A DNA stretch of 63,980 nt, filler included, from Bonamia ostreae (lineage: Eukaryota): assembly GCA_040357525.1 (NCBI GenBank). It is 5 parts of 5 records of this genome, joined end to end, with 100 filler letters (N's around TTAATTAATTAA, not from the genome) between each part and the next. Parts side by side here need not be neighbours in the genome. Positions count along the whole stretch, not along the records: positions 1 to 14,214 come from JBDODL010000008.1; 4 more parts are not named here. One strand, 5' to 3'. Of this stretch, positions 3,201-55,447 are shown piece by piece; the first letter of the stretch is position 1; each line of letters starts with the position of its first letter. Position numbers and translations under genes: made by a program. The notes beneath the pieces are model-generated. The model ran no database searches. It saw only the letters and a program-made list of their open reading frames with translations, and was not told the DNA's origin.

Positions 3201-3951
3201 CGAAATTTTGGTTGAACTACTAAAAGACAGAGAATCCGACCCTTTCTTCGCAGATTTGCGAACAAAACAATCATTGGGCTACATCGCTTCAATAACTTCT
3301 TTCAAACGGGGAAGTTTTAATTTGTCAAAGTAAAATTTCATTTTAAAGCTCAATTGTACTTGGGAGCAGTAATCCAATCCTCGGATAAAGGTCCTGATCT
3401 AGTGAAAAAGGCAATCGAAGATTTCTTCTCTAAATTCGAATCGGATTTGTTCAAAGGACCTATATTTATGGAAAGAATAACCAGTTTTAAATTCAGCTCT
3501 GTTTATTATTTCATAAACAATATTCAAAAAAGACCTCGAAAAGAAGCTGAAAGAACCGGACAAAAGTCTTTTGGAGTGTTTAGAGCGATATTGGAATGAA
3601 ATAGATTCTATGCGACTCGATTTTGAGCACAAAGAAAATCAATTGAGACTACTCCAATCAATCAAAAAAGACGAGAAGTTGGTCACCAAAAATTTACTCG
3701 AGTTTATGAAGACGAAAAATACGATATATGCGATGGTTTCAGGAGCCGATCACGTTGATGAAGTCAGAGTTCACGATGGTAGTACAAAACTGGACGATCA
3801 AGAATTAGCTATTAGAAAAGAGGCGGTCGTTTCGTTCAAGAACAAAGGCGGATCACCTCCAAGTGCAGCCAAATCGGTAATGAAAATTCAAACGATTTCT
3901 TCTTATGAGTTTTATAACAAGGGCATTAACAAATCAATCGAAGTACATTGA
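236..3951 (+). CDS. M16A metallopeptidase (insulinase/pitrilysin family), multi-exon
   Basis: Splicing 317-336 and 448-470 gives MASNHIKITKPVSDYKDY...IVLVHDPK...GVGS...NGLAHFIEHLIFQG (inverted HXXEH zinc motif), then GGLTNAFT, HPYSIFGCGNSETL, EKWFGARY and FADLRTKQSLGYIA. Internal exon boundaries only partly resolved. Confidence 0.9.
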
Positions 3952-11835: not shown

Positions 11836-14214
11836 ATGACAAATTCAAAATCGCTGTTCGACCTTCTATCTCTCGATAAAGAAATTAGAACTTGTCTCGA
11901 CAAAAATAAAAAAGTTGCGGAAAGAATGGAAAAATTGTTGACCGAATCAAAGTATTTACGAAGTGGAAGCAAAATCCCAGAGGATCAAAGCAAACTTCTT
12001 TACACTTTTGCCAAAAAGGGCTACAAATCAGATTCGGCCGAAATCCACTCATTCGTCGTGAGAGACTTAATCATTGATCAGTTCAAAGACTAATCTTAAA
12101 TTTCAAATATCAAAAATTGAATTTTAAAATTTCTAGAAAAATAACCAGCCAGGAGCAGTTGGATGCCGCTGAAAAATATTTTTCCAAAAACAGCAAAATA
12201 GACTTCGACGATTTCGAAAAGAACTGTGGAATCGGTGTTACGATAACGGACGACGAAATTCGTTATTGTGTCAGAGAAATTCTGGAAGAAAACATAGAGC
12301 TTCTCAAAAACCAAAAGTTTTATAGCACTTAAACCAGATGGGACATTTATCCAAAACTACGAAGCGGGCTTATGAAAAATCTGAGAAACAAATTGCCTTG
12401 GGCTGACGGCAAGAAACGATTAGAGATTTTCAATTCCGAAGTGGAAGCTATTATTGGACCAAAACCGAAAATATCAGTCAAAAAGAAGTCTCCTTCAAAG
12501 ATTAACTCCGAAGAAGGTTTTCTGCTCAACTCGTAAAGAACAAGTGAAAGGAGCGATCGGGTTGGATAAATACTTGAAGGGGCGTAAGATGAGCATTGTA
12601 TACAACACTAAAGAAATCTACGCGGAACATGTCGAACGCACCAAAGGCGTTTTTCATTCTCGCTTTCCACCCGAGCCAAATGGCTATCTCCGTTCATTAA
12701 ACTCGAATAAAAGATATTGGCCACGCGAAAGCGATAAACTTTGATTTTTCGCTCGCTAAAGCTAAAAACGGAGAGTGCATTCTGCGTTTCGACGACACGA
12801 ACCCGCTCGCAGAAGACATAGACTATATTGAAAATATAATCGATGTTTTAAATTTCAGCTCGAACAGAACGTAAAATGGCTCGGCTTCGAGCCTTCCCGT
12901 GTTACTTATTCCTCTGATTATTTTGACGAATTGTTTGCTTTTGCGGTCAAAATGATAAAAGATGGAAATGCTTACGTGTGCCACCAACCACAAGAAGAAA
13001 TAAAACGATCCAGATTTGCATTTTCATTTTTACAGATTTGCGCATCAAAACCGGAAAACCACAGCCGAGTCCTTTCAGAGATCGTCCGGTCAAAGAAAGT
13101 TTGAGACTTTTCTATGAAATGAGAGACGGTTTATGTTGGAAAAGTCAAAATAATTTTAGCTTTTCTGTTTAATCAAAATTGTAAACAGAAGCAAAAACCG
13201 CAATTCAGCTTTTGACATTTTAATATTCTGCTCAATAATTGTCTATATGTCTCAGTCCATTTTGATATTCTGCTCTACAATTCAATAATTTTAATTCCGA
13301 TTAAAGGAAAGTTTGAACCCGGAGAAGCTACATTGAGGATGAAGGGTGATTTGGAACACCCCAACCCAAACATGTGGGATCACATCGCTTATCGAATCAT
13401 TGATGCAACGCATCCGCACGTCGGAAATAAGTGGAGAGTGTACCCGAGCTACGATTTCACTCACTGCATCGTCGACAGTTTGGAGGACATCGACGCTTCC
13501 TGTTGCACTCTGGAGTTCGAAGTTTTGCCAAAATAATTTTCACTTGTTGAAAAATTAGAATCGAAGAGAAAGTTACTTTTGGTTGCTGGACAAATTGGGA
13601 TTGTTTAAACCGGTTGTGTGGGAATTTTCGCGGTTGAACATGGACCACAATGTCATGTCAAAGCGAATGCTCTCCGAATTAGTCGACCGCAAAATTGTGC
13701 GGGGGTGGGATGACCCAAGACTTTTAACGATAAATGGGATCAGAAGAAAAGGCGTTCCCGCTGAAGCGATCAATAATTTTTGTGAAAAAATTGGCGTTGG
13801 CTAAACTTAAATATACAAAAATTTATCAATTTAGTTTATTCACATTAACGTTCGACAATTCAAAGGTGACGAGAGCTCAAAACAGCATTTCGTCGACTTA
13901 TTTGGATGTCTTCACTATAAATGTGCTAGATTCAATTTGCAAAAGAAACATGGCTGTTCTGGATCCTCTTAAAATAATAATCACGGATTTTGACCAAAAC
14001 GAAACAAAAACAGATTTGTGTCCACTCTACCCAAACATAAAAAACAATGAAGAAAAATATGTAGTCACAATGAGAAAAACTCTGTTCATCGAAAAAACCG
14101 ATTTCAAACTGAAAGACGAAAAGGTTTAGAGATTTAATTAAATCAGAAATTTTTTGGACTTGCGCCGGGCAAAACAATCCGACTAAAATATGGAGTTAGA
14201 ATTCGATGCGACAA
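11836..14214 (+). CDS. QARS1: Glutaminyl-tRNA synthetase, 3'-truncated by scaffold end
   Basis: [18 protein letters not shown] after removing the 22-nt intron 12692-12713; [41 protein letters not shown]; eukaryotic N-terminal extension ([16 protein letters not shown]). Confidence 0.96.
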
Positions 14215-14314
14215 NNNNNNNNNNNNNNNNNNNNNNNNNNNNNNNNNNNNNNNNNNNNTTAATTAATTAANNNNNNNNNNNNNNNNNNNNNNNNNNNNNN
14301 NNNNNNNNNNNNNN
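14215..14314. other. Artificial scaffold-joining linker (N44-TTAATTAATTAA-N44)
   Basis: Six-frame-stop 12-mer inside N runs; identical constructs at 28331-28430, 42029-42128 and 55182-55281. Confidence 0.97.
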
Positions 14315-20443: not shown

Positions 20444-23400
20444 ATGCTTGAAAATTCGGCTAACAGTCACAAATCATTGCTACATCGCTACGACGATGTT
20501 TACTAAAAAATTCACCTAAAAGCCTCTTAACCAAGACTTGAAGAATATTAGATCGACTACAAACACAGTAGAGCGCTCTTATTCAAGTACGACCAGTTTT
20601 GCAGGGGAAGAAATGACGACTTCAAAGGAAAAAACTGAAGAACCCGGTTGTTGTTGTTTGTTCGACTGTATCGTGGGTTATTGCAAAAAAACTAAATTCG
20701 GAACTTGGGATGGTGTCTATTTAAGTTGTCTTCTTTCGATGTTCGGTTTTTACTTTCAAGCTTTTTAAATTATATGAATAACAAATTTTGTTAGCGTTTG
20801 TCATATAACAAATATTTTTTGGCAAAAATGATTTAGTTTCGTTATTCAAAATTTAATAATTATAAACAATCCAAATTTTATTTGCAATTTTTTCGCAACT
20901 TGGCTAATTTTTGCTAAAATTTTTGATGACTATTTTTTGTTACCAAATTAAAATCGATAAGGTGTTATAATGTTTTTGAGATTGGGTTACATAATCGGAG
21001 AAGCTGGAGTCTGGCAAACATGGATAATAGAGTTTATTTCAGCAATAGTTGTCTTTGTCACAACCCTTTCGATGTCAGCTTTATGCACAAATGGCGAAGT
21101 CAGACATGGCGGCGCTTATTATTTAATATCAAGATCGCTCGGACCAGAAATCGGCGGTTCCATAGGAATACTATTTACTGTTTTATCGGAAAAACTTTGA
21201 AAATAACAAAGATCGGTAATTCAATCGCGGTGTCGATGCATATTCTCGGATTCGCCGAACCAATGGTAAATCAAATCGGGAAGATTGTAACGAATTCTGA
21301 AAAGAACGATTTGCGAGTTTACGGCACAATTTTACTTTTCGTTTTGCTGATTTTCGCCTTTATTGGAGTCGGATGGATGATAAAAATCCAATTTCTGATA
21401 GCTTTTGTGCTCATAGCAGCCATTATTTGCTTTTTTGTCGGTTGCTTTATAACTATTGATTTGAACTATCTCATTGTGAGCGTCGGCAACGGAGCATTCA
21501 TGGAGAATTTTAATAGTGCTTATACGGAAGGCACATCCTTTGTCACTATTTTCGGAGTGTTTTTTCCAGCAATGACTGGTATCATGGCTGGGGCAAATTT
21601 GTCTGGAGATCTTATCAATCCATCCAATTCTATTCCGACGGGTACTTTGACGTCTGTGATTACTGCTTGGGCTGTTTATATGGCTATGTCTACAATTATC
21701 GCTGACTCGACTTTAAGAGGAGGTTTTAATAAGTCATTTCATAACCGGCAAATTTTGTTGTCACAACCAAATTTTGGTGCATTTCAATAACTGTTGTCAC
21801 AACAAAATTTTTATAAATATTATTTTTAAAACAAAAAATATCATAATAAAAATTGACGACAAAAAAAGATCCGTCAATATGCTCATCCGAATATCCTTCG
21901 ACAGGATTATGCTACAATTTGATAATGGAAAAGATAGCGGTTCCGGGCGAAATAATTTACGCTGGAGTTTACGCAGCCACATTGTCTTCCGCTTTGGCTG
22001 CTTTAATAGGCGCTCCTCGCATTTTAACTGTTTTAAAAAAGTTTATTTTCTCAAAAGACTGTCGCGAACGATAAATTATTGTCCATTCTGAACATTTTTG
22101 CCATCAAAAGAAATAACGGAGAACCTCTTTTCGCTTATATCCCCGCAGCTCTTATATCATTCGGCTGCATCATGATAGCGAGCATCAACACGATCGCTAC
22201 TGTTGTGACAATCACTTATTTGATTACTTACGCATTGATAAACTTCGCGTGCTTTCAGTCAGTTTTTAATTTTTGTATTTTTTTTGAATTAGTCGATTTC
22301 GAAATCGCCGGGATGGCGTCCAAGATTCAAGTTTTATAATGCGTGGGTTGCTTTGACTGGCGGGATCGTTTGTTTTGTGCTCATCTTTGTTTTGAACTAT
22401 ATCATCGCTATCCCTGCTTCCATCGCAAGTTTCTAACGCTTTAAAAAATTGCAAATTAACGGAAAAGTTATTCAAAAAGTTAAAAACTAATGTAAAAAGC
22501 GTTATTGATTTATCTGTTAATTTATTGGAAACGTCCAAAAGTGAATTGGGGCTCAGCTACACAAGGAATAGCAATGATAACAGTGGTGAAACAATTGCAT
22601 CTTCAACATAGACAAAAAGAACATATCAAAAATTTTAGAGTTTTTAATTTTTTATATTCGTTACTTAAAATTTGTCGTTATAATATTTCAGTTAAAAATA
22701 ATAAAACAATTTTAGTGAAAAATCAGTCGTTAAAAAATAAATCGTTAAAACAATTTCAGTTAAAAAAATTAGTCGTTAAAATAATGTATAAAATAAGCCA
22801 AATATTATCGTGTTCACCGAGAATCCAAATAAAGATATCAAATTATTGTCTTTTCTGTATACCTTGAAACACAGCCATGGAGCAAATTTTCTTGGAATAG
22901 TTAAAGTTTAGAAACCAATTTTTAGGAATCTTATAGCCCTTCAGAAACAGATGAAGATTTTTACGAATGTCAAGTTTTCGAGAAGAAATTTTTATTGTTT
23001 AAACATCTCTACGTTTCATCTGATTTCTACAACGGCTGTGCTGTTCTTCTTAATGCTGTCGGTGTCGGTTTTTATTCGTAAAAAGTATTCCATTTTAGTA
23101 CTTTGCATAAACATTTTTTGGTAACAATGGCGCAAAAGTGTTTTAGTAAAAACGTCATCTGGCATCAATGTCAAAAACTTTTATTCTAAAGTACATTAAT
23201 GACAATAAAGGGCGGATTAAACCGAACACAATGTTTATAAAACATCCGCACAACTGGCGAGAACCAGAGACTCTGCGCCACAGCTACTTTTCTCTGCTCT
23301 GCGCTGCATCGGCCAGAGAAAACGGCATTATGATCGCGCTCAATTTTGATCAACTCGATCTTATCAACACCGATCCGTTTGGAACCATCGACGTCTGGTG

Positions 23401-23988
23401 GCTCTACGACGACGGCGGATTGTCCATTTTGCTACCGCACATTTTGACCAAAAGTTCGTTTTGGCGGAGGAACACCGAAGGAGGCAAAACGTTAGTACCT
23501 TTGCGACTCTTTATCATCTCGAAAGAAGGCGAACTCGAGCGAAAATCGATTTACGATTTATTGGCGTTTTATATTAAAAATTGCTCTTTGCATTTTTTGA
23601 AAGAAAATTTCGGTTGGACGATATTGATGTGAATTGCGTTTATCCGGATGAAAAAGATTTGGAAAACAATAATACGCGTTGGGATGTGGTTGCTAATCTA
23701 ATGTCGAGATATTCCAAAAAAGCTAAAATAATTTTCGTTTACAATTTTATTGTAAGAAATATTTTTATCAAACATTTTTGCAAGAATTGGCAATACAAAA
23801 AATATTTTTATAAATTATTTCATTTCCAAAACTTTACGAACTTTTTTAAAAAGTGTACTTTGCCACGCCCACAAATATTTTTGGGTCCAGACTATTATCT
23901 TGGAATATTTGATAAAATGTCAGAAGATATGCCGGCTACAATAATGATGAGAGGAGAACGTAGTGTTTTAACATGGAAACAAGAATGA
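20444..23988 (+). CDS. SLC12 cation-chloride cotransporter (NKCC/KCC-like), copy 1
   Basis: KFGTWDGV, MFLRLGYIIG, SALCTNGEVRHGGAYYLISRSLGPEIGGSIG, FFPAMTGIMAGANLSGDL, SPGWRP, VNWGS, EHIKNFRP, IDVWWLYDDGGLSILLPHIL. Confidence 0.95.
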
Positions 23989-24334
23989 TTAAATATCGTT
24001 TTTCTGATTTTGATACTTATTAAAAATGAACTGACTTTTATAATGTTAAAAAAGTCAAAACGTTAAAATGATGTTTGATAATTATAATAACATGAAGATG
24101 AGAATGCACAAAAAAGTACCAAATTAACAATTTTGACCTCTTAATAGATCAAATGTAAAATAAAACTGCTTCATTGACAATGTTGTCTAAAATATTTTTG
24201 GACAATAAAGTTTTCCGTGCGATAAGAAAAAACGGAGAATTTTATTAGTTTTAAAACTAATAAAAATGAAACCGTTCATTATTTCAAAAATTGTATATTA
24301 TAACAAACCTTTAGTTATTAATAAACCCTTTTTG

Positions 24335-27300
24335 ATGGATGAAAATTACCTGAATAGCCACAATTCGTTGATGCATCGCGTAGACGATGTTTTTAAATCA
24401 CATAAAAAGCCATTTAATCAAGACATCAAAAAAATGAAGAAAAGAAAAACCATTTTTGAGCAATCGATCTCGAGTTCCACCACGTTTTCGCAAAAAAGAA
24501 ACAGTCAAGATGATGCCGACTCAGTGTCTGAAAGAAATTGTTGTGGCTGCTTCTTCAGATACTGCAGAAAAACAAAATATGGCACATGGGATGGCGTGTT
24601 TTTGAGCTGTATTCTCTCGATAATTGGTGTCATCATGTTTTTAAGATTGGGATATATCGTTGGCCAAGCTGGGATATGGCAAACGTGGATCGTGGAATTT
24701 GTATCTGCCTTAGTTGTGTTTCTCACAACCCTGTCCATGTCTGCGCTTTGCAGCAACGGTGAAGTGAAGCATGGCGGCGCTTACTATTTGATATCGCGCT
24801 CTTTAGGCCCAGAGGTCGGAGGTTCAATCGGGATATTGTTTAGCGTTTTTTGAATAGGTCAATTGCAAAATTGAGATAATTAGACCATTCTTACAAAAAA
24901 TTATTTAAATGCCAAAATTTCCCCTAATTTTGCTGCCATTAAAAGCTCGGCAAATCGATTGCCGTTGCCATGCACACGCTTGGAATTGCAGAACCGATAG
25001 TAGACCAAATAGGTTTGCACATAACGAATTCCAAAGCAAACGAATTGCGTGTTTACGGTGCTATCATTTTAGCCGTTTTGGTCATTATCGCTTTTATTGG
25101 CGTGGGCTGGGTCATAAAAATACAATTTTTGATGGCACTGATTCTCGTCGTGACCATTATTTGCTTTATCGTGGGTTGCTTTGTAACGGTCAATCCAAGA
25201 GAATTGATTGTGGGCGTTGGGAAAGGAGCATTTAAACAGAATTTTAATAGCGAGTACACCAAAAACGTCGACATCATCGCCATTTTCGGTGTATTTTTCC
25301 CTTCGATGACAGGAATAATGGCCGGGGCCAACATCTCTGGCGATTTGGCCAACCCTTCGAAATCCATTCCAGTTGGCACTTTATCTGCTATAATCACATC
25401 TTGGGCATTGTACACTTTGATGTCCACATTTCTAGGGAGCACTGCTCTGCGGGGGAATTTGGGAGAGTGTGCCAAATCGACCCCGTTAACAGGGATTTGC
25501 CAAAATCTGATAATGGAGCGAATAGCGATACCGGGACAAATTATTTACGCGGGGATATACGCTGCGACGATTTCTTCAGCGCTGGCGAGTCTTGTCGGCA
25601 GTACAAGAATTTTAACTGTTCTCACCAAAAATTTTTGACAATTAAATTTAAAGAAGGTTGCGAATGATAAAATAGTGTCATTTTTGACTATTTTTTCTAA
25701 AAAACGCAAATCGGGCGAACCTTTGTTTGCGTACGCGCCTGTAACAATAATTTCTTTGGGATGCATAATGGTGGGCAGCATCAACCAAATCGCTACACTT
25801 GTTACAATCGCTTATCTAATTACTTACGCTTCGATCAATATCGCGTGTTTTCAATCAGTTTTTAAGTCATTGTAAACAATCTGGATTTAAATTATTGTTG
25901 CTATGTACATATTTAATATTGTCGCAATACAAAACATTATCTGTAAAGTCCTTTTCAAAATCGCCAGGATGGCGACCCACGTTCAAGTATTACAACAAAT
26001 GGGTCGCATTGATATCTGGACTGAGTTGTTTTGTGTTGATATTTGTGTTAAATTACATCATTGCTATCCCGGCCTCGATCGCAAGTTTGTTACAGTCAAA
26101 AAAAAGCATTTTTAATTTTTTTGATGATATTTCGGAACAGTCCAAATGTCGATTGGGGATCGGCGAATCAAGGCTTCGCAATTATGACGATCGTGAAGCA
26201 ACTTAAGCTATTAAACGGAAAGAAAGAACATGTCAAAAATTTTCGAGTTTTTAAAAAAAAACAATAATTGCTTTGAAACTTGATTTTTTTCTGATTATCC
26301 AAAAATCAATTTCAACAAATTTAAAATAGCCGAACATAATCGTTTTCAGTCAAAATCCAAACAACGACCACAAACTAATTTCTTTTTTGTACACTTTGAA
26401 ACACAGCCACGGAGCAAACTTCATTGGAATTGTTCAAGTTTTTAAATTGATGATAAAGAAACATTTGAGCATATCAGAAATCGACGAAGATTATTTCGAA
26501 TGTGAAGCTTTTGAAAAGAAATTTGTTTTGTTTAGGAATAATTTTGAAACAAATGATTTTTTCTTTGGATGCACCATTTTGCTCAAAACAGTTGGTGTCG
26601 GTTTTTATTAAAGTATTCAAAATCAGTACTTTCGTAAAAGCATTTTTTGGTAACAATGGCGCAAAAGTGTTTTAGTAAAAAAGCCATCTGGCAACAATAT
26701 CAAAAACTTTTATTCTAAAGTACATTAATGACAATAAAGGGCGGATTAAGCCGAACACAATGTTTATAAAACATCCGCACAACTGGCGAGAACCAGAGAC
26801 TCTGCNNNNNNNNNNNNNNNNNNNNNNNNNNNNNNNNNNNNNNNNNNNNNNNNNNNNNNNNNNNNNNNNNNNNNNNNNNNNNNNNNNNNNNNNNNNNNNN
26901 NNNNNACGGCGGATTGTCCATTTTGCTACCGCACATTTTGACCAAAAGTTCGTTTTGGCGCAGGAACACCGAAGGTGGTATGAACGCAGCACCTCTTCGG
27001 TTGTTCATTATTTCAAAGGAACACACGAACAAAAGTTCTGTTGACTCTTTAATGGAGTTTTTGTTATAAATTTCAAAGACGGCTTCGTCTTGAAGGAGTT
27101 GATGTTCATTCTGTTTATCCGACGGGAGATGTTGAAAACGAAAAAAAGTGGGAAAAGGTGGCTGAACTGATGCACAAATATTCAAAAAGAGCAAAAATCG
27201 TATTTGTTTTTTTGCAATTTTATAAAAAGTGTACTTTGCCGAAGCCGCAGGTTAAATTGGGTCCAGATCACTTTTTTGAGATAATGGATAAAATCAGTGA

Positions 27301-27682: not shown

Positions 27683-28518
27683 ATTTTAATTTTTCCGTTT
27701 TTATTCATATGAAACTTATATTTTTTTCTTTTTTAGACTTTTACTAATAACTATTACTGTTTCAAATTAAATTTCTTTGACTTTTTTTCAACAAGATATT
27801 TTGTTTTAAATTCCAAAAGATGTTTTGCCCTTAACCATCTTTAAAATATGACACAGTCAATGTTTTAGTGTTTAACTCAAATTTTTTATGCGTGTAGTAT
27901 CTCAATGATCTCATTAAATGATCTCACTAATATCTAAAAAGACGGTTCCGCATTGTTTCCTGAAACTGGATTATATCTCTATTTTCTTGTTAGTAAATAT
28001 GTCCCCAGAATTCGTCATTTTTAGGAATAATGTAAAACAAGAAATTAAAATATTTGACGAAGATAAAATTAATTACAACGTATTTGAAAAGTACATTAAA
28101 ATATTAAAATGATGGTTACATTACGCCTTTACTTATTAGTTATATTTTGATAATTTGCATAGTTAATATTTGCTTCATTAATTAAAAATCGGCAAAACAA
28201 TTTTATCATCTTAAAAATTACTGAAAATGCTTTTCAAAATTACTATTTAGTTATTTCAAATAAAAACGATTCACTGTTTGTGGAACTATTGCAGCCACTC
28301 GAAGATAGATGCTTCAAGTGTTTTTATATANNNNNNNNNNNNNNNNNNNNNNNNNNNNNNNNNNNNNNNNNNNNTTAATTAATTAANNNNNNNNNNNNNN
28401 NNNNNNNNNNNNNNNNNNNNNNNNNNNNNNTTTAAATTTTATCTAACACAGATGCCAGGCCAATTGGTTTTAATTTATTTTTTTGCTCCATACGGAGTAT
28501 GGTCAGGGAGGAAGAGGG

Positions 28519-31855: not shown

Positions 31856-34800
31856 TTAAATAGAATTGACTACTTTCCCCAACGAACGAGCAATCGTTTG
31901 CTTTTTGCTGCGAATGCGAACATTTCCTTCTATAAAGTTTTCAGCGATTTTTTCGATCGATATGTTCATCAAAACGTAATCTCCTTTTTAAATTTGCAAT
32001 GAATTTTTTTTGGACAAAAATTCAAATTTCCGACAAACCAAAAATGCTTTTGGCGCAAAAATTGGCCGACAGAAAGTTTCCAGAATCGTTAATTAGATAG
32101 TCAGGCGTCAGACATTTCATTCTCGTTGCTCTGACAAGCTTGCTGCGAAAGTCCGAAAGTTCAATGTCGCTGTTTTTCAAGTTTATCTTGTTTTCCCAAT
32201 CGAACTCTGCCCACATTTCCGCAAAATCTCCGTCCGAACATTCCGATGGCCTCAAGAAATCGACGATTTTTAGATCCAATCTTCAATTGAAATTTTGAGA
32301 AGATATTAAGTTTTAGCTCTAAAAATGATTTGCCTTTTCATCCACAAGACGCCAAGTTCCGAAGCGGTTTTGTTGTAAGTCAAACAAGCGAAGATCGCTC
32401 CGCCGTCCGTTGAGACGGCTTTCAATCTAAGAGCGATTTTAGAGCAATCGCCTGAAGCGATTTCAGCGCATTTTTGAGATTCCTCTGATCTCAATCCATC
32501 CGAGCAATAAATTTCTATTTCAATGTTCTTTAAATTTTTGAATTTTTTCCTCTTAAAATTGCAACAAAAACGAGAAAAATGTTAAAATTGTCTCCTAAAA
32601 TTGCAAAAAAATTGTTTTTTCTAATTCGCAAAAATATGTCAAAATTTTGCTTTTTAACTTTAATCGTATTTTCAGTTCGATTGTGAACAAAAAAGTCGAT
32701 AAAAATATCAAAATTCGACAATCTCGTCGTGCATTCAACATAAAGCGGATCTTGATATCCGGTCATTTGATGCACTAATCCACGTTTCAACCAGTTAAAA
32801 TTCTCGACGATTTCTAAAATTTTAAAATTTACTTTTGTTTTTCGAATTCAGAGAATAATCGTTCGTTATAAAGGGAATGTTTATCGGTTCGTCTATTTTT
32901 GACGTCTCCTAATTTTAAAATTTAGCTTTTTTAAAATTTTTTAAATATCGTCTAAACCAAAATTTATAAACTTTATCCAATTTTTTAGAAGATTTTACAT
33001 TCTTTTCTACTTTTTTCGTAAAAGCGTTTTTATATTTTTCTAACGATGTCATCATTAAAATACACTGTGTTATGTTCGAAAACAGATTTTTTTCGATATC
33101 TTTGTTAACTTTCAATATCTTGCACAAACACAAAACGCACTTTGTAAATTTTTGTTTTATTTAGATTTTAATTTTTCGTCGTTATAGCAAAATTATAATC
33201 TCAATTTTTATTTAAAAATCGCAATTTATTTTTTGCGAAATTATCAAAATTATCGTTAATTTTAAAATAAATCGACTTTTGCAGAAAACTCATTAATTAT
33301 TTTATTTTCTTTGTTGTCAAAATTATAAAGTCTCAGAACTAGCTTTGCAAGCGATTTCGCCAAACAAGCAGACATGAAACCATTTTTGTTTTTCATAATT
33401 TCGTTTCGCAAAAGAGTATTTTTGTCGTTCGCCACTTCCAGAAGTTTAACCAAAACGTTTTTAATGCTTTTCGGAGATTTTGAATGTTCGCCCAATATCC
33501 AAATCGACGTTCTTAACACGTTTTGTGTTTTTATTCTGGCCAAATTCGACTTAAAATGAGTTATTTTTAAGACCAAAATTTGCAAATTTTGTTCTAACAA
33601 TTTGCGAAAATTTATAAACGATAAATTTGTCGATAATTAACGGCAGGACATCTTTTCCATTCCCAACGACAGATTTAAGAAAGTTTGAAATATTTTTAGA
33701 ATTTTTGGCAAAACTTTCTCTGACGGCCAAATCAAAAGCGATGTCGATTACATCGGGAATAGCAGCATTTGTTTTCGTTCCGCACTGTTCATAATGAATA
33801 TTTAGTGATAAAATATTTATTTGAAAACTTCGAAAATGGAATTAATAACTAAATTCTTGTAATCTTCAGCCAAATTTTTTTCGAGTTCGCTTATCAAAAA
33901 TGATATTGTTTTTTTCTGATTAGAAGGTGTCATCAAATCCACCGCGATTTTCACCAAAATTTTTTTAGTTTCTTAATTTTGCACAAAATTTAGTTTTTTT
34001 TTAAAATAAACCAAAATCGTTTTTGTCGAAATTTCTGAAAAGTTCTGGGACACTGACAGCCATTTGAGACGGGAATTCGTTTTTATAATTGTCTAAAATT
34101 TCCAAAATGAATATTTTTGCGCTTGTATCGCTCGTTTGGTTCAAAATGTTAGTCATTTGGCTTTAAATAGCAAAAAATAACAGTAAATAGCTTTGAATTT
34201 CTGTCAACGAAGAATTGATTTTTTTGAATGACAACAATACGCGAAAAGCTTCAAATGCGATCGCTAAATTTTGCGACAAAGCTATTTTTTTTAAACATTT
34301 TTTGTAAAATTTGGCGCTTTCTTGAGTAATTTCGGTCTTTTAAAATTAGTAAAAATTGTCAAAGATCATTACAAAAAATATTTAGTAAAAATTTTCGAAA
34401 ATCATTACAAAAAATATTTAGTAAAAATTTTCGAAGATCATTGCAAATTTTTTTATTTTTATTAAACATTTTTAATAAATCGAATGATTTCAGATTGAAT
34501 TAAGTCGCTTTCGTTGTCCAAGTTTTGCCAAATTTTAGACAGAAAAGAATCAGCCATTTCTTCGTTTTTCTGTTTTAGAAAAACAAAATAATTTCTTTTG
34601 CAAGCATCGTCGCTTTCGGTCAACGCCTTTTCCAATAAAGCGTCATTAATTTCTTCAATCACACAGAAGCCGGTTTTTTCAGTTGAAATCAATGCCATTA
34701 ACGCGAATCGACGGCAAACGGCTTCTCCGTGTTCGAGATTTTGGATTAACTCTTGTTTGACCATTTCCAAAATTTGTGGATCCTGGAAAGAGCACAAAAG

Positions 34801-35166
34801 ACGAAGGGTCGCTGATCGTATGTATTCATTCGGATGTTTCAAATCTTGTAATAATCGGTTGCAGACGAGAAGTGTCTCGTCTTTGAAGTGCTCTTTGTCC
34901 GAAACAGTCCAAAAGACTTCCCAGAAATAGAGGCACAACAATTTGATGTCTCTTTCCGGAGACGAAAAACAGAATTTTATGACCGGAATGAGCACTTCTC
35001 GCAATTTGGAGGTATCTTTGATAACCTGCGCAATCAGTTTTTTGAGAGCTATTCTTTTTTTATCGACGTCGTTCGATTCAAGGAAAACAACAATCGAATC
35101 CAGTTTTTCGTTCTCTGAAAAGTTTTCAGAGTTTATCAGTAAAGGACATTTTTTAGCTTTAATCAT
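31856..35166 (-). CDS. COPB1: Coatomer subunit beta
   Basis: LVCNRLLQDLKHPNEYIRSATLRLLC, WILGEHS, QMTGYQDPLYVE, FAEMWAEFDWENKI, FLSANFCAKSIFG, IRSKKQTIARSLG. Confidence 0.95.
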
Positions 35167-35504
35167 TTCGGACTAATAAATTTTATAATATAATTTATTT
35201 GTTTTTGTTAATAAAGGAATGAAAAATTGATTGTTGATTGTCTTTGTTGATAAAGGAATGAAAAATTGATGATTACATTGTTAATAAAACTAAAAGTTAA
35301 ATTAATATAACAATATCTGATGTAATAAACTAGCAAAACATTTAGCCAAATCCTAAAAATAGCTGAACGGGTATATCCAATTTGTTTAAAATTGTTTTTT
35401 TCATTCATAGCTTCGTCTAGGATTATTGTCAAAATTTAATAGTTTGCTTATTATTGCCCTTCTACAGACCTTTTTAATTCCCCCTTTAAATCCCGATAGA
35501 CGAA

Positions 35505-42028: not shown

Positions 42029-42714
42029 NNNNNNNNNNNNNNNNNNNNNNNNNNNNNNNNNNNNNNNNNNNNTTAATTAATTAANNNNNNNNNNNNNNNN
42101 NNNNNNNNNNNNNNNNNNNNNNNNNNNNTTATAGGAAATACTGCAGGGAATAATAGAATTCTGCGTTTTTGGTGGAATTGAGAGAAAACCAAAAAAAATC
42201 TGTAAAGTGGCTGATTCGAAACGCTAAACATTGAGATGCGTAATATGACGCCTCTTACTTCCAGGGAGTCATATAATGACTCATGTATCAGTTTTTAGAC
42301 TATCGATATTATAATGATCCTGATGTTCAAACAAGTCTAAGATGACCATTTATTATAAATTTCAGATCAAGGAATTCAGATATAATGAAAACCTATGAAA
42401 ATAATGCAAAATCAGATAAAAAAAATAGAACGATTTTACATATGATCATTTTATTTTGAACACATTTTTCAGATCCAGATTTTAATTCTTCTGTACAACT
42501 GGCCGTCATTTTCTCTTTCCATTTGCAATTTAGTCGAATATACTAGGGCAGTCTATTAATTTGGAAAGGAGCGTATTTACAAATGTGGGATGTCTCCAAC
42601 TGTATCCATGTGCATAAAACTTAATCCCATTAAAAATATCGCAACGGCGTTATAAACAACGAATGCTTAGTTATTAAACGAATTGTATATTATAAACTTT
42701 AAACTAACAGCAAA

Positions 42715-44813
42715 ATGCAAAAGTTGGTGCCGGTTACAAATAAACTGCAAGATATTTTCTCAACACTCCATTCAAGTCCGCTCCTTTTGGACTTGCCACA
42801 AATCGTTGTCGTCGGAAACCAAGTACTTTTATTCACCTTCGCCAGTCTTCCGGTAAAAGCTCGGTACTAGAAAGCTTTGTGGGGAGGGACTTTCTTCCCA
42901 GAAACAAAGGTATTTGCACAAGACGGCCGCTGATCCTGCAGCTGGTTTCCTCGAAGGAGGCAGTGCGCGAGTACGGGGTCTTCTTGCACCAGGAGGAAAA
43001 ACGCTACTCCGACTTTTCCAAGATAAGAGAGGAGATAATCGTTTTTCCCCTCATCAGCAGAACCTGACGGAAAAAGAGGCCGGCAAAGGCAAAGGCGTCA
43101 ACGAGAGGCCCATCGTCCTGAAGGTCTTCTCGGAAAAGTTCATCGACCTGACGCTAGTGGACCTGCCCGGCATAACGAAGGTGGCTGTGGGCGATCAGCC
43201 CACCGACATCGAGGAGAAGATCCGCGGCATCGTGAAGTCCTACGCGGAGAAGCCCAACACGCTAATCCTGGCGGTTATCCCCGCGAACGTGGACATCGCA
43301 ACCTCCGACGCGCTCAAGATCGCGAAGGAGCTGGACCCCCACAGCAAGCGCACGGTCGGAGTGCTCACGAAGGTTGACCTGATGGACAAGGGGGAGTCTG
43401 TCCGCGACATCTTGGGCGGAAAAGGTTTGCAGACACATCTTCAGTCTTCCCGCTCCGACACGGATACGTCGCCGTCAGGAACAGGTCGCAGTCTGAAATC
43501 GCGCTGAACGTCTCCGTGGCAGAAGGGCTGGAAAGAGAAAGGCGCTTCTTCGCAGACAACGCCCTATACAGGTTTCGCTCGCAACGCCAAGCGCCCTCGC
43601 GGAGCACACGGGCTCGGCGCGCCTCGCGGAGCGCCTCAGCCGGATCCTGGTGGCGCACATCAGAGCATTCCTTCCCGGGCTGCGGCTGCACGTCAGACGG
43701 ATGTCGGCAGAAGTGGAGAAGCGGCTCCGCAAAGTTAAGCTTTTTACGTCTTTGAAGTTCGGTGCAGACCCCTCCGACGGCAAAGGCGCCAAGCCGGCCA
43801 CGCTGCTCGCGGCGATCTCCAAGTACGCGAACAAGTTCAACGACGCGATCGAGGGGAAGGAGAAAGACGCCATCGCCAAGAAGGAGCTGTACGGCGGAGC
43901 GCGGATTTCAAAGATCTTCCACCAGGACTTCGCCGCGCAGGTGCTGCGGATCGACCCCTTCGACCAGCTGCGGAACGAGGAAATCAGCACCGCGATCCGA
44001 AACGCGAAGGTTGTCACCTCCACCTCAGGGCACCAAGCCGTCTCTCTTTGTGCCCGAGCTGTCCTTCGAGATCCTCTCGAAAAGCCAGATCGCGCGCCTG
44101 AGGGAGCCCGCGCAGCACTGCGTCGAAATGGTCTTCAACGAGCTCCAGAAAGTGTCCCTGAACTGCTCCGCGGCGGAGCTGCGGCGCTACTCGAAACTGA
44201 AGGAGAAAATTGCAGACTGCGTCGGCGACGTGCTCAGGGAGAATAAGAAGCCGGCGGTGGAGATGGTGGACCGCATCATCGATTGCGAACTGGCCTACGT
44301 GAACACCAACCACCCCGACTTTGTAGGTTTGATTTGACACCGAAGGCGGCAGCGAGGCGGTGCCCGTCGCGCTCGACAAAGCCAGGAGGGACGAAGCGCT
44401 CCGGGCGAAAAGCCTGGATGGCGCGGACGCGAAGGAGCAGAGGGGGAGCTCGCAGGCGCTGGAGAGGAAGTCGCTGAACAGACAGTCGATTGAGATCGAA
44501 ATAATAAGTTTCCATCGCAACTCCTAGAATCGCTGATCGCCTCCTACTTCCAGATCGTGAGGAAGAACGTGATGGACAGCGTCCCGAAAGCGATAATGAT
44601 GTTTCTGGTAAACAAGACGAAGGAAGACTTGCAGAGCAAGCTCGTCTCCGCGATGTACCGTGAAGAAATGGTTCGAATCTCTATTTAAAGATCGACGATC
44701 TTCTGGAAGAAGAAGCGGAGGTCTACGCCGAGAGGGCCCGGCAGAAAGAAATGCTCTCCGTTCTGCAGAAGGCGCTAAAGACTATCGAGGGAATCAGAGA
44801 GTTTAAAGTGTGA
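42715..44813 (+). CDS. Dynamin-related GTPase (Drp1/Vps1 type, no PH domain)
   Basis: [20 protein letters not shown] after intron 42823-42845; [54 protein letters not shown]; about 9 introns of 19-24 nt. Confidence 0.96.
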
Positions 44814-54237: not shown

Positions 54238-54947
54238 ATGTTCCATAAAGGCTTGCTCGGCACAAACGTCCTGAAGGCGACACGAAGCATTTTCACGCCC
54301 TGGGGCAGAGTCCGACATGACAAAGTACTAATTAGTAAAATATAGCTCTGGAAGCCCAAACTCGTGGTGGGGCTAGGGAACCCCGGAATGGACGGTACTA
54401 GACACAACCTCGGCGCCATGTGGGTGCGACACATTGCGAAACAGTGTGAAGCACAGTTAGAGCCCCTTCCAAAGCTCAACTCTGCGGTGTGCCGGCTCGA
54501 CAATCCCGAAAAGACCGTTCTGATGGTTCCGACCACGTTTTGCGCGCGACTTTAAGGTACATGAACTTGAGTGGGGAAGCCGTCAAACAATGCATCACCG
54601 AACTTGGGATATCCCCGGACGACGTGGCAGTCGTGCACGATTGCCTCGAAGTCGAAGTCGGCGAAGTGAAAATCAGGAAAAAGGGCTCTCTCAACGGACA
54701 CCACGGGCTACTTAACATCGCCCGGGAGACGGGTCACAAAAAGCTGAAAAGACTGTCGATCGGAATAGGCCGCCCTGACAGCGTGGAAGAAGTGATCGAT
54801 TATGTCCTGGGCAAACCCGATTTGGAGGATTTTGCTAAAATTGAAGGCTTCGCCTTTAATTTTGTCGGAAATGAGTTTATAAAAGAGCTCTATGACGCCC
54901 CAGAAGATAAGATGATCGGAATCCCCGTTTTAGGACACGAAAATTAA
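54238..54947 (+). CDS. PTH1: Peptidyl-tRNA hydrolase, bacterial type, probably mitochondrial
   Basis: Presequence-like N-terminus, LVVGLGNPG..TRHNLG, PTTYMNLSG, VVHD, GHHGL, RLSIGIGRP, DYVL; two 20-21-nt introns. Confidence 0.93.
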
Positions 54948-55447
54948 ATTTTAATCTGTTCTGCAAATTTTTGTATTGCATGTTTATCTGTCATTGACAA
55001 TATCACCCGTACTTTATTTTTTTATCTTATTAATTTCACAATACTAATTGTTCTGTAAAATTACAAGAAATTTTCATTTGGATATCCGTGTAAAGTCTTG
55101 TGCGTGATAATTAACGTTACGGAAAATTTTTGGAAATATTGCACATCGTAAAATTATTAATATTCATATGGCCGCACTCACNNNNNNNNNNNNNNNNNNN
55201 NNNNNNNNNNNNNNNNNNNNNNNNNTTAATTAATTAANNNNNNNNNNNNNNNNNNNNNNNNNNNNNNNNNNNNNNNNNNNNAACATTTTGAAATATGTAC
55301 ATAAAAACAGTTACTAGACGAGGAACTTTTTCTCATCAAACTTTTGGAATTAACTAAAAAAAGAACACAGAACATTAAACCTCCGCTATATAACAAATCC
55401 CGTAAAGTTTATATAATCCAGAGCTTATATTATACCGTTATACTGGC

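Follow-up and report, generated by a model that had tools for sequence, protein, structure and literature searches.

A probable 20-nt AT-AC intron in the glutaminyl-tRNA synthetase gene of Bonamia ostreae, apparently spliced like the ordinary introns of this parasite

The haplosporidian Bonamia ostreae (Ascetosporea, Rhizaria) is a parasite of flat oysters. One of its housekeeping genes, encoding glutaminyl-tRNA synthetase (GlnRS), poses a question of splicing: the reading frame changes between two conserved blocks of the protein, and no GT lies between them. How, then, is a continuous message obtained, and which machinery could be responsible? The gene was analysed in a stretch of joined draft scaffolds of B. 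ostreae, here called the window, which covers 64 kb of a 12-Mb genome. The draft underlying the assembly is a low-coverage Illumina one. According to the text of the genome paper the assembly amounts to 12.24 Mb with an N50 of 1417 bp and 33.3% GC, and the coverage of the parasite was low (PMC11069148). The gene and the window are laid out as follows:

11836..14214, + strand: GlnRS (glutaminyl-tRNA synthetase) gene MHBO_000069, truncated by the scaffold end
12081-12136, 12317-12337, 12517-12538, 12692-12713 and 12845-12867, + strand: GT-AG introns of the GlnRS gene, first part
13129-13306 (alternative donor 13144), 13522-13558, 13796-13865 and 14124-14146, + strand: GT-AG introns of the GlnRS gene, second part
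14215, 28331, 42029 and 55182: linkers of the form N44-TTAATTAATTAA-N44, between the scaffolds of the window
Within the scaffolds of the window: N100 gaps

The host gene is GlnRS, MHBO_000069. When the exon at 13306-13521 (72 residues) was used as a query, 313 of 322 candidates were relatives at E <= 0.001, and the top match was 'hypothetical protein MHBO_000069 [Bonamia ostreae]' (100%); three NCBI isoforms of one locus fall into its 90% cluster. The Pfam domains PF04558, PF00749 and PF03950 are found on successive ORF pieces, and the domain set is that of GlnRS, with a class Ic catalytic, an anticodon-binding and a eukaryotic N-terminal domain; the Pfam tRNA-synt_1c match falls on the ORF 12832-13101. 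Comparison of the downstream piece with human and bacterial GlnRS structures gave weak matches (best E = 0.025). With the proposed introns removed, 635 codons are open as far as the scaffold end, and the product shares 58% identity with its closest homologue over 622 aligned residues. Every intron of the gene except the one discussed here is GT-AG, and introns of 56-178 nt are present next to very short ones.

The frame break itself can be read off directly. The upstream frame (codons from 12970, position mod 3 = 1) runs into a stop at 13102-13104, whereas the side that encodes PSPFRDRP, downstream of the break, reads in frame mod 3 = 0. Since the frame differs across this site, an excision of 3n+2 nt is required. 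GT occurs within 12970-13075 at 12976, 12978 and 13069 only, which leaves none from 12979 to 13068 and thus none between the two conserved blocks. The initial annotation had described this change of frame, the lack of a GT and the need for 3n+2 nt, and had proposed the removal of a 20-nt AT-AC intron, ATTTGCATTTTCATTTTTAC; sequence and frames agree with all of this. Its two alternatives were also described correctly, in that a GC-AG excision of 18 nt (13018-13035) leaves the frame wrong and a GA-AG excision of 23 nt (13013-13035) restores it. The proposed structure is:

12868..13013, + strand: upstream GlnRS exon, ending with the first two bases of an Arg codon
13014..13033, + strand: probable intron of 20 nt with AT..AC termini, phase 2, placed by homology rank and by exact rebuilding of the isoforms
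13034..13128, + strand: downstream GlnRS exon, starting with the last base of the Arg codon

The 20-nt stretch has AT as its first and AC as its last two bases, and it interrupts an Arg codon of which AG lies in the upstream and A in the downstream exon. As an A stands at both 13014 and 13034, excision of 13015-13034, which would have the termini TT...CA, yields an identical mRNA. The two placements are equivalent at the level of sequence, and the AT-AC placement is the one that we prefer.

Which excision is favoured by homology was determined with termini disregarded. All frame-restoring, stop-free excisions of 8-99 nt within 12965-13080 (n = 1892) were translated, and each product was aligned to the corresponding segment in the 8 closest homologues carrying the flanking motifs; still shorter excisions, which would be a proxy for indels, fall outside the scored range. 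The two equivalent 20-nt placements, 13014-13033 and 13015-13034, took ranks 1 and 2 with a score of 1197, followed by excisions scoring 1166 and 1163. The 23-nt GA-AG excision scored 1123 (rank 100), the best GC-AG excision ranked 385 and the best GT-AG excision 1152. When the comparison was extended to all 72 homologue segments, in the majority of which the loop is shorter, a slight advantage (9760 vs 9659) went to excisions that were somewhat longer, none of them with recognised termini. Homology distinguishes a 20-nt excision from one of 17 or 23 nt to a moderate degree only. The preference for the 20-nt excision exceeds chance; with random termini at this base composition, we estimate that AT-AC would be expected in well under 1% of junctions. 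The GT-AG excisions 12978-12994, 12978-12997 and 12976-13013 are compatible with the frame, but were rejected with ranks of 1152-1192 as the conserved block is lost. Since this block is deleted by the frame-compatible GT-AG excisions, it is homology alone that decides at 13014-13033. MAFFT alignment of the product and 11 homologues shows no gap across the junction for 8 of the 11; the Arg whose codon is split is kept in 11/11, and the following residue is Asp or Glu in 9/11.

A second line of evidence comes from the public gene models. The three isoforms of MHBO_000069, P0001 (614 aa), P0121 (529 aa) and P0122 (640 aa), all contain KRSRDLRIK, and each could be rebuilt letter for letter from the window by removing GT-AG introns together with 13014-13033. 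Exact rebuilding succeeds only when the 20 nt are removed; if they are retained, the first stop is encountered at residue 375 (of 614). The junction 13013|13034 is in this sense already implicit in the GenBank records. The isoforms differ in the use of the alternative donor 13144 in one and the retention of 13796-13865 in another.

As to how this junction came into the models, PASA is run inside the update step of funannotate. The annotation of B. ostreae is described as having used funannotate train/predict/update with published RNA-seq reads (PMC11069148). In the published description of the two programs, EVM accepts as valid only GT-AG and GC-AG introns, and PASA additionally admits AT-AC (PMC2395244). 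Since an AT-AC junction is accepted by PASA and rejected by EVM, it most likely entered the models via transcript alignments. The behaviour of EVM may differ in later versions. On the basis of this pipeline behaviour, the 13013|13034 junction probably rests on RNA-seq transcripts, and the occurrence of isoforms with an alternative donor and a retained intron fits with a transcript origin. Three GenBank isoforms need its removal, and 13014-13033 is probably taken out of the mRNA in vivo.

The third line is the likeness to the other introns in the window. The comparison set consisted of 33 GT-AG introns, of which 14 (nine in GlnRS and five in dynamin) are fixed by exact rebuilding of annotated proteins; the remaining 19, spread over 12 genes, are our own placements at junctions where the Pfam coordinates of neighbouring ORF pieces follow on from each other. 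A frame-compatible GT-AG intron was available at 22 of 22 such junctions, and at 21 of them the best one takes out at most 18 Pfam-aligned bases. At the 22nd, in a peptidyl-tRNA hydrolase gene, the Pfam alignments overlap and the intron was set by eye at 54537-54556. With these placed, AT-AC is found in 1 of 34 introns in the window, the other 33 all being GT-AG. Two elements of the candidate can be compared with this set:

13014..13021, + strand: 5' splice site ATTTGCAT, following the local G-T-T-T consensus save for position +1
13025..13026, + strand: CA at -9/-8, putative branch site, in keeping with local intron composition

The lengths of the local introns are approximate, since alternative acceptors (e.g. 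giving 17 or 20 nt) were picked by eye; the mode is 20 nt (8/33), 19-24 nt is found in 21/33, and 56-178 nt in 7/33. Their 5' consensus reads G, T, T (31/33 at +3) and T (21/33 at +4), and towards the 3' end 19 of the 33 have A at -8 and 13 have C at -9. In the candidate, T occupies +3 and +4, CA is found at -9/-8, and the length is the modal one, as the initial annotation had remarked. Scored with a matrix of the local U2-type 5' sites in which the termini were skipped, it reaches 4.24 bits as compared to a local mean of 2.45, which is more than 24 of the 33 local introns and is equalled by 1.4% of 10529 background AT sites; this matrix is built from few introns, 19 of the 33 being our own placements. 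The 3' score is 1.9, the local mean being 2.17. A dynamin intron at 43425 starts with GTTTGC, identical to the candidate hexamer ATTTGC save for position +1; the initial annotation had likewise seen ATTTGC as a mirror of the local GTTT donor. Given the A at -8 and C at -9 in many local introns, CA at 13025-13026 may be the branch site.

Since AT-AC termini are the classic mark by which the first U12-type introns were found, removal by the minor spliceosome deserves consideration. The U12 class is described as being defined by its 5' site and its branch motif, with an optimal distance of 11-13 nt between branch and 3' site (PMC3584512). Both defining elements are absent from 13014-13033, in agreement with the original statement that the donor does not match the U12 consensus. 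Instead of ATCC, as in the 5' site (A/G)TATCCTT, the candidate ATTTGCAT has TTGC at +3..+6, and from +3 to +8 it matches the consensus string ATCCTT at 3 of 6 positions, local GT-AG introns giving 0-5. The best agreement with the branch motif is 4 of 8 and ends 8 nt from the 3' site; the best matches in local GT-AG introns are 3-6 of 8. Judged against these consensus strings, the intron has the U2-type character of lacking a U12 5' site or branch motif. Furthermore, 20 bases are too few to accommodate a 5' site and a branch motif of 8 nt each together with a spacing of 11-13 nt. In the part of a survey that deals with Rhizaria, minor-spliceosome snRNAs were not found in the rhizarians analysed, Bonamia not being among those named (PMC11347168). 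A search with Rfam of the 64-kb window of this 12-Mb genome gave no match and no snRNA. A U12-type intron is a very improbable reading, and the likeness to local introns, together with the rhizarian survey (PMC11347168), suggests that it would be the major spliceosome that acts on 13014-13033.

A peculiarity of the site, which had been noticed from the start as a cagatttgc direct repeat, is that each junction lies in a copy of the same 9-mer:

13011..13019, + strand: direct repeat CAGATTTGC, copy 1, spanning the 5' junction and including the first intron base, A 13014
13033..13041, + strand: direct repeat CAGATTTGC, copy 2, spanning the 3' junction and beginning with the last intron base, C 13033

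In the other 33 introns, the longest junction-spanning repeat measures 3-6 nt, and only 0.175% of 20000 shuffles of the 50-nt context reach a repeat of at least 9 nt (P = 0.00175). A third occurrence of the 9-mer in the window is at 3251. The 20-mer 13014-13033 itself, when searched for as a repeated element with up to 3 mismatches allowed, has a single occurrence in the window. Target-site duplication, reverse transcriptase (RT) template switching and ribosome hopping between the copies were each considered and rejected: the copies have a period of 22 nt, not 20, and because of this any of the three would remove 22 nt and produce the wrong frame. As for the origin of the repeat, one may speculate that it arose by copying between two near-identical 9-mers.

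The reading that has to be weighed most seriously against an intron with AT-AC ends is an error in the assembly. Since the draft has low coverage, base errors at 13014 and 13033 are possible, and the true sequence could be GTTTGC...TTTTAG, with G at both positions, which would make 13014-13033 a perfectly ordinary local intron; alternatively, there could be no intron at all and an indel that restores the frame. The substitutions would, however, have to be two in number, hit exactly both terminal bases, and together form the one known compensating pair, which is unlikely, and it is exactly 20 nt that are excised in all three annotated isoforms. With an indel, about seven hydrophobic residues (FAFSFL or ICIFIFT) would be put into a charged loop that has kept its length in 8 of 11 homologues. 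Sequence error in one form or the other is thus improbable. Still less can be said for the 23-nt GA-AG intron at 13013-13035, which leads to ...KRSNLRIK... in the product. It restores the frame and makes use of a canonical CAG acceptor, and elsewhere in the window a GA-AG excision gives the best fit of a beta-COP junction to its single homologue. At the GlnRS site, on the other hand, 99 of the 1892 excisions rank above it, the loop loses one residue relative to the 8 homologues of equal length, and the Arg that is invariant in 11/11 is changed to Asn. It is missing from all three annotated isoforms, and such an alignment would be rejected by PASA according to the published description (PMC2395244). 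Its use in the cell would be surprising.

Even less probable is that the gene is a decaying pseudogene with a real frame break. Parasite genomes do lose genes, and a single scaffold is seen here, but a run of 635 open codons with the proposed introns, 58% identity to the closest homologue over 622 residues, GlnRS domains throughout and an intron-like 20-mer that mends the break exactly all argue against decay, which we find scarcely credible. Short unconventional introns of 3n+2 nt are known from XBP1 and HAC1, and RT-switch artefacts and hop sites are flanked by direct repeats. A non-spliceosomal event, be it cleavage of the IRE1/HAC1 type, a translational hop, or RT template switching that misled the annotation, could therefore be envisaged from the size of the excision and from the 9-nt repeat CAGATTTGC at the junctions. 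The 22-nt period of the repeat nevertheless gives the wrong frame, and the frame requirement comes from DNA and homologues, with no cDNA involved. The twin stem-loops of IRE1/HAC1 substrates are absent from the predicted fold of 12990-13060, which at -6.4 kcal/mol is no better than shuffled sequence (z = -0.10; equalled by 77 of 200 shuffles) and makes an IRE1-type intron unlikely. All three non-spliceosomal routes have, in our opinion, next to no likelihood.

The preferred reading remains a genuine spliceosomal intron with AT-AC ends in the GlnRS gene of B. ostreae. The U2-type spliceosome would remove 13014-13033 in the same way as the ordinary 19-24-nt GTT...AG introns, with ATTTGC being read as a GTTT-type donor in which A replaces G at +1, and CA at -9/-8 acting as the branch site. 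Together with the final C, the A at +1 would form the compensating pair of end bases by which rare U2-type AT-AC introns can be spliced in animals, fungi and yeast mutants, and excision would join AG|A into an Arg codon by which the frame is restored. Homology, the public annotation and the likeness to local introns are three independent lines that support the 20-nt AT-AC intron as initially proposed, and on this combined basis we consider it likely that the intron is real and is spliced by the U2-type machinery like the ordinary introns of the parasite.

Whether more introns without GT-AG termini exist in the window was explored in several ways. A codon-usage dynamic-programming parser, in which any termini were allowed at a penalty, proposed 147-148 introns and was discarded as too crude since known GlnRS junctions were mis-set; the AT-AC site was bypassed, even at low penalty, via read-through to a 213-nt GT-AG intron. 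When ORFs were joined over all 256 terminal pairs, the proportion for GT-AG was 56 out of 195 matrix-passing sites (0.29). For AT-AC it was 43 of 440 (0.10), which is no excess over arbitrary pairs (0.05-0.17), the scan being powerless either to detect or to rule out a few further AT-AC introns. At the beta-COP junction, a 64-nt GA-AG excision (33657-33594) scores 88 against the single, 43%-identical homologue, and a 70-nt canonical GT-AG intron (33619-33550) that also keeps the spacing scores 76; after tblastn, excision ranking, PDB searches and a relaxed Pfam scan both stand. Among Bonamia models there is one for dynamin, spoiled in the assembly by a missed 19-nt intron. For beta-COP only the unnamed 43%-identical homologue was found, and the search of representatives gave a garbled 112-aa fragment. 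It is conceivable, though rather doubtful, that the major spliceosome of B. ostreae, acting on introns of some 20 nt, tolerates non-GT 5' ends at a percent rate and that the repeat records the origin of the termini. If so, 13014-13033 would be the first example to come to light of a class to which the beta-COP GA-AG excision 33657-33594 might belong, the rate would be in the order of percents as compared to thousandths of a percent in model organisms, and the minor spliceosome would probably be missing. The repeat, which holds both odd end bases, would then show how they originated, e.g. by copying between the 9-mers at the junctions.

U2-type AT-AC introns ('type II') have been defined operationally by a match to the U2 5' matrix of the species with the G at +1 replaced by A, and a count over five species gave 24 of them in 610,067 introns, human SCN4A and SCN5A being examples (Sheth et al. 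2006, PMC1557818). The frequency of 1/34 found here is far above the reported 0.003% (PMC1557818), in a window that was chosen for this intron. The intron of B. ostreae shares with SCN4A and SCN5A the termini, a U2 5' consensus save for +1 and the lack of U12 motifs, and is, like those, a single and rare case among GT-AG introns; by its sequence it fits with this class. It differs in its host, a rhizarian parasite, and in its length of 20 nt, which is at the lower limit of intron size. To our knowledge, the U2-type AT-AC introns known so far are of ordinary size. With U12-type AT-AC introns, as characterized in PMC3584512, it has only the terminal dinucleotides in common, since the 5' site and branch motif are lacking and it is too short. 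In yeast intron mutants, a change of the first base from G to A was rescued by a change of the last base from G to C (cited in PMC1557818), a pairing of first and last base which explains the tolerance of the major spliceosome for A...C. The same pair of bases is involved in both cases, with the difference that the yeast introns were engineered and the B. ostreae one is natural and resides in a housekeeping gene.

Ultra-short introns have been described from mikrocytids (16-17 nt), the chlorarachniophyte nucleomorph (18-21 nt) and heterotrich ciliates (15-16 nt) (PMC10245619). The introns of that description and those of B. ostreae have in common a narrow size class near 20 nt and a constrained sequence, and mikrocytids are ascetosporeans like Bonamia; AT-AC termini go unmentioned in the passages concerned (PMC10245619), and Bonamia also possesses introns of 56-178 nt. 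Where it deals with introns, the B. ostreae genome paper speaks only of 'canonical introns', and four of its supplementary files mention neither introns nor AT-AC nor the locus tag (PMC11069148). 'Bonamia' and 'AT-AC' occurred together in no paper of the literature searched, and when the search was widened to Ascetosporea, splice sites and short introns, nothing relevant was listed besides the genome paper (PMC11069148).

In an intron of 20 nt, nearly every base belongs to the 5' site, the branch site or the 3' site. The present case suggests that the compensating A...C for the G...G pair also works in such an extremely reduced rhizarian intron system, and among the described AT-AC introns known to us 13014-13033 would be the shortest. 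A gene finder restricted to GT-AG and GC-AG introns would break the GlnRS housekeeping gene at this point. No new mechanism is called for; the intron would extend a known rare intron class to a new lineage and a new size range.

Five scaffolds, their sizes descending along the stretch, make up the window, and the end of the first at 14214 truncates the GlnRS gene. The features concerned are as follows.

13011-13019 and 13033-13041, plus strand: two copies of a 9-nt direct repeat
13129-13306 and 13796-13865, plus strand: GlnRS introns that vary among isoforms
20930-23985 and 24209-26600, plus strand: two paralogous SLC12-type cation-chloride transporter genes
32025-35172, minus strand: beta-COP gene, junction region 33550-33660
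42715-44800, plus strand: dynamin gene
44010-44028, plus strand: 19-nt GT-AG intron, GTTGTCACCTCCACCTCAG, absent from the annotated dynamin model P0123 (MHBO_000085)
14215-14314, 28331-28430, 42029-42128 and 55182-55281: linkers N44-TTAATTAATTAA-N44 between scaffolds
18970, 26806, 45960, 49238, 58352 and 62152: N100 runs

Among the three GenBank isoforms of GlnRS, P0122 is spliced from an alternative donor, 13144, and thereby gains five residues found in none of the 11 aligned homologues, and P0121 keeps the 70-nt intron 13796-13865 and ends early; the transcripts behind both are probably minor or unproductive. The AT-AC intron of this gene has its non-canonical first and last bases within the two copies of the repeat, whose period of 22 nt differs from the intron length of 20 nt.

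At the beta-COP junction, a 64-nt GA-AG excision (33657-33594) gave the best fit to P0124, the single homologue compared (43% identity), and a canonical 70-nt GT-AG intron (33619-33550) fits almost equally well. The GA-AG excision is a possible second non-canonical intron of the window. In the dynamin model, the 19-nt intron is left unspliced, which leads to out-of-frame read-through and a false C-terminus; unlike this model, the Pfam Dynamin_M match goes on in the other frame beyond the intron.

The GC content per 2-kb window is 25-43%, mostly about 30%, in the first three scaffolds (1-42028) and 34-52%, mostly above 41%, in the last two (42129-63980), one of which bears an annotated Bonamia gene. 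GTT...AG introns of 19-24 nt are common to both groups of scaffolds, with G+C-rich interiors in the last two. Short as well as long GT-AG introns interrupt each of the SLC12-type genes, which adjoin on a single scaffold.

Among the 33 GT-AG introns placed in the whole window, 19 have A at -8 and 13 have C at -9. This bias suggests that the putative branch site in these tiny introns is held at a fixed distance of some 8 nt from the 3' splice site.
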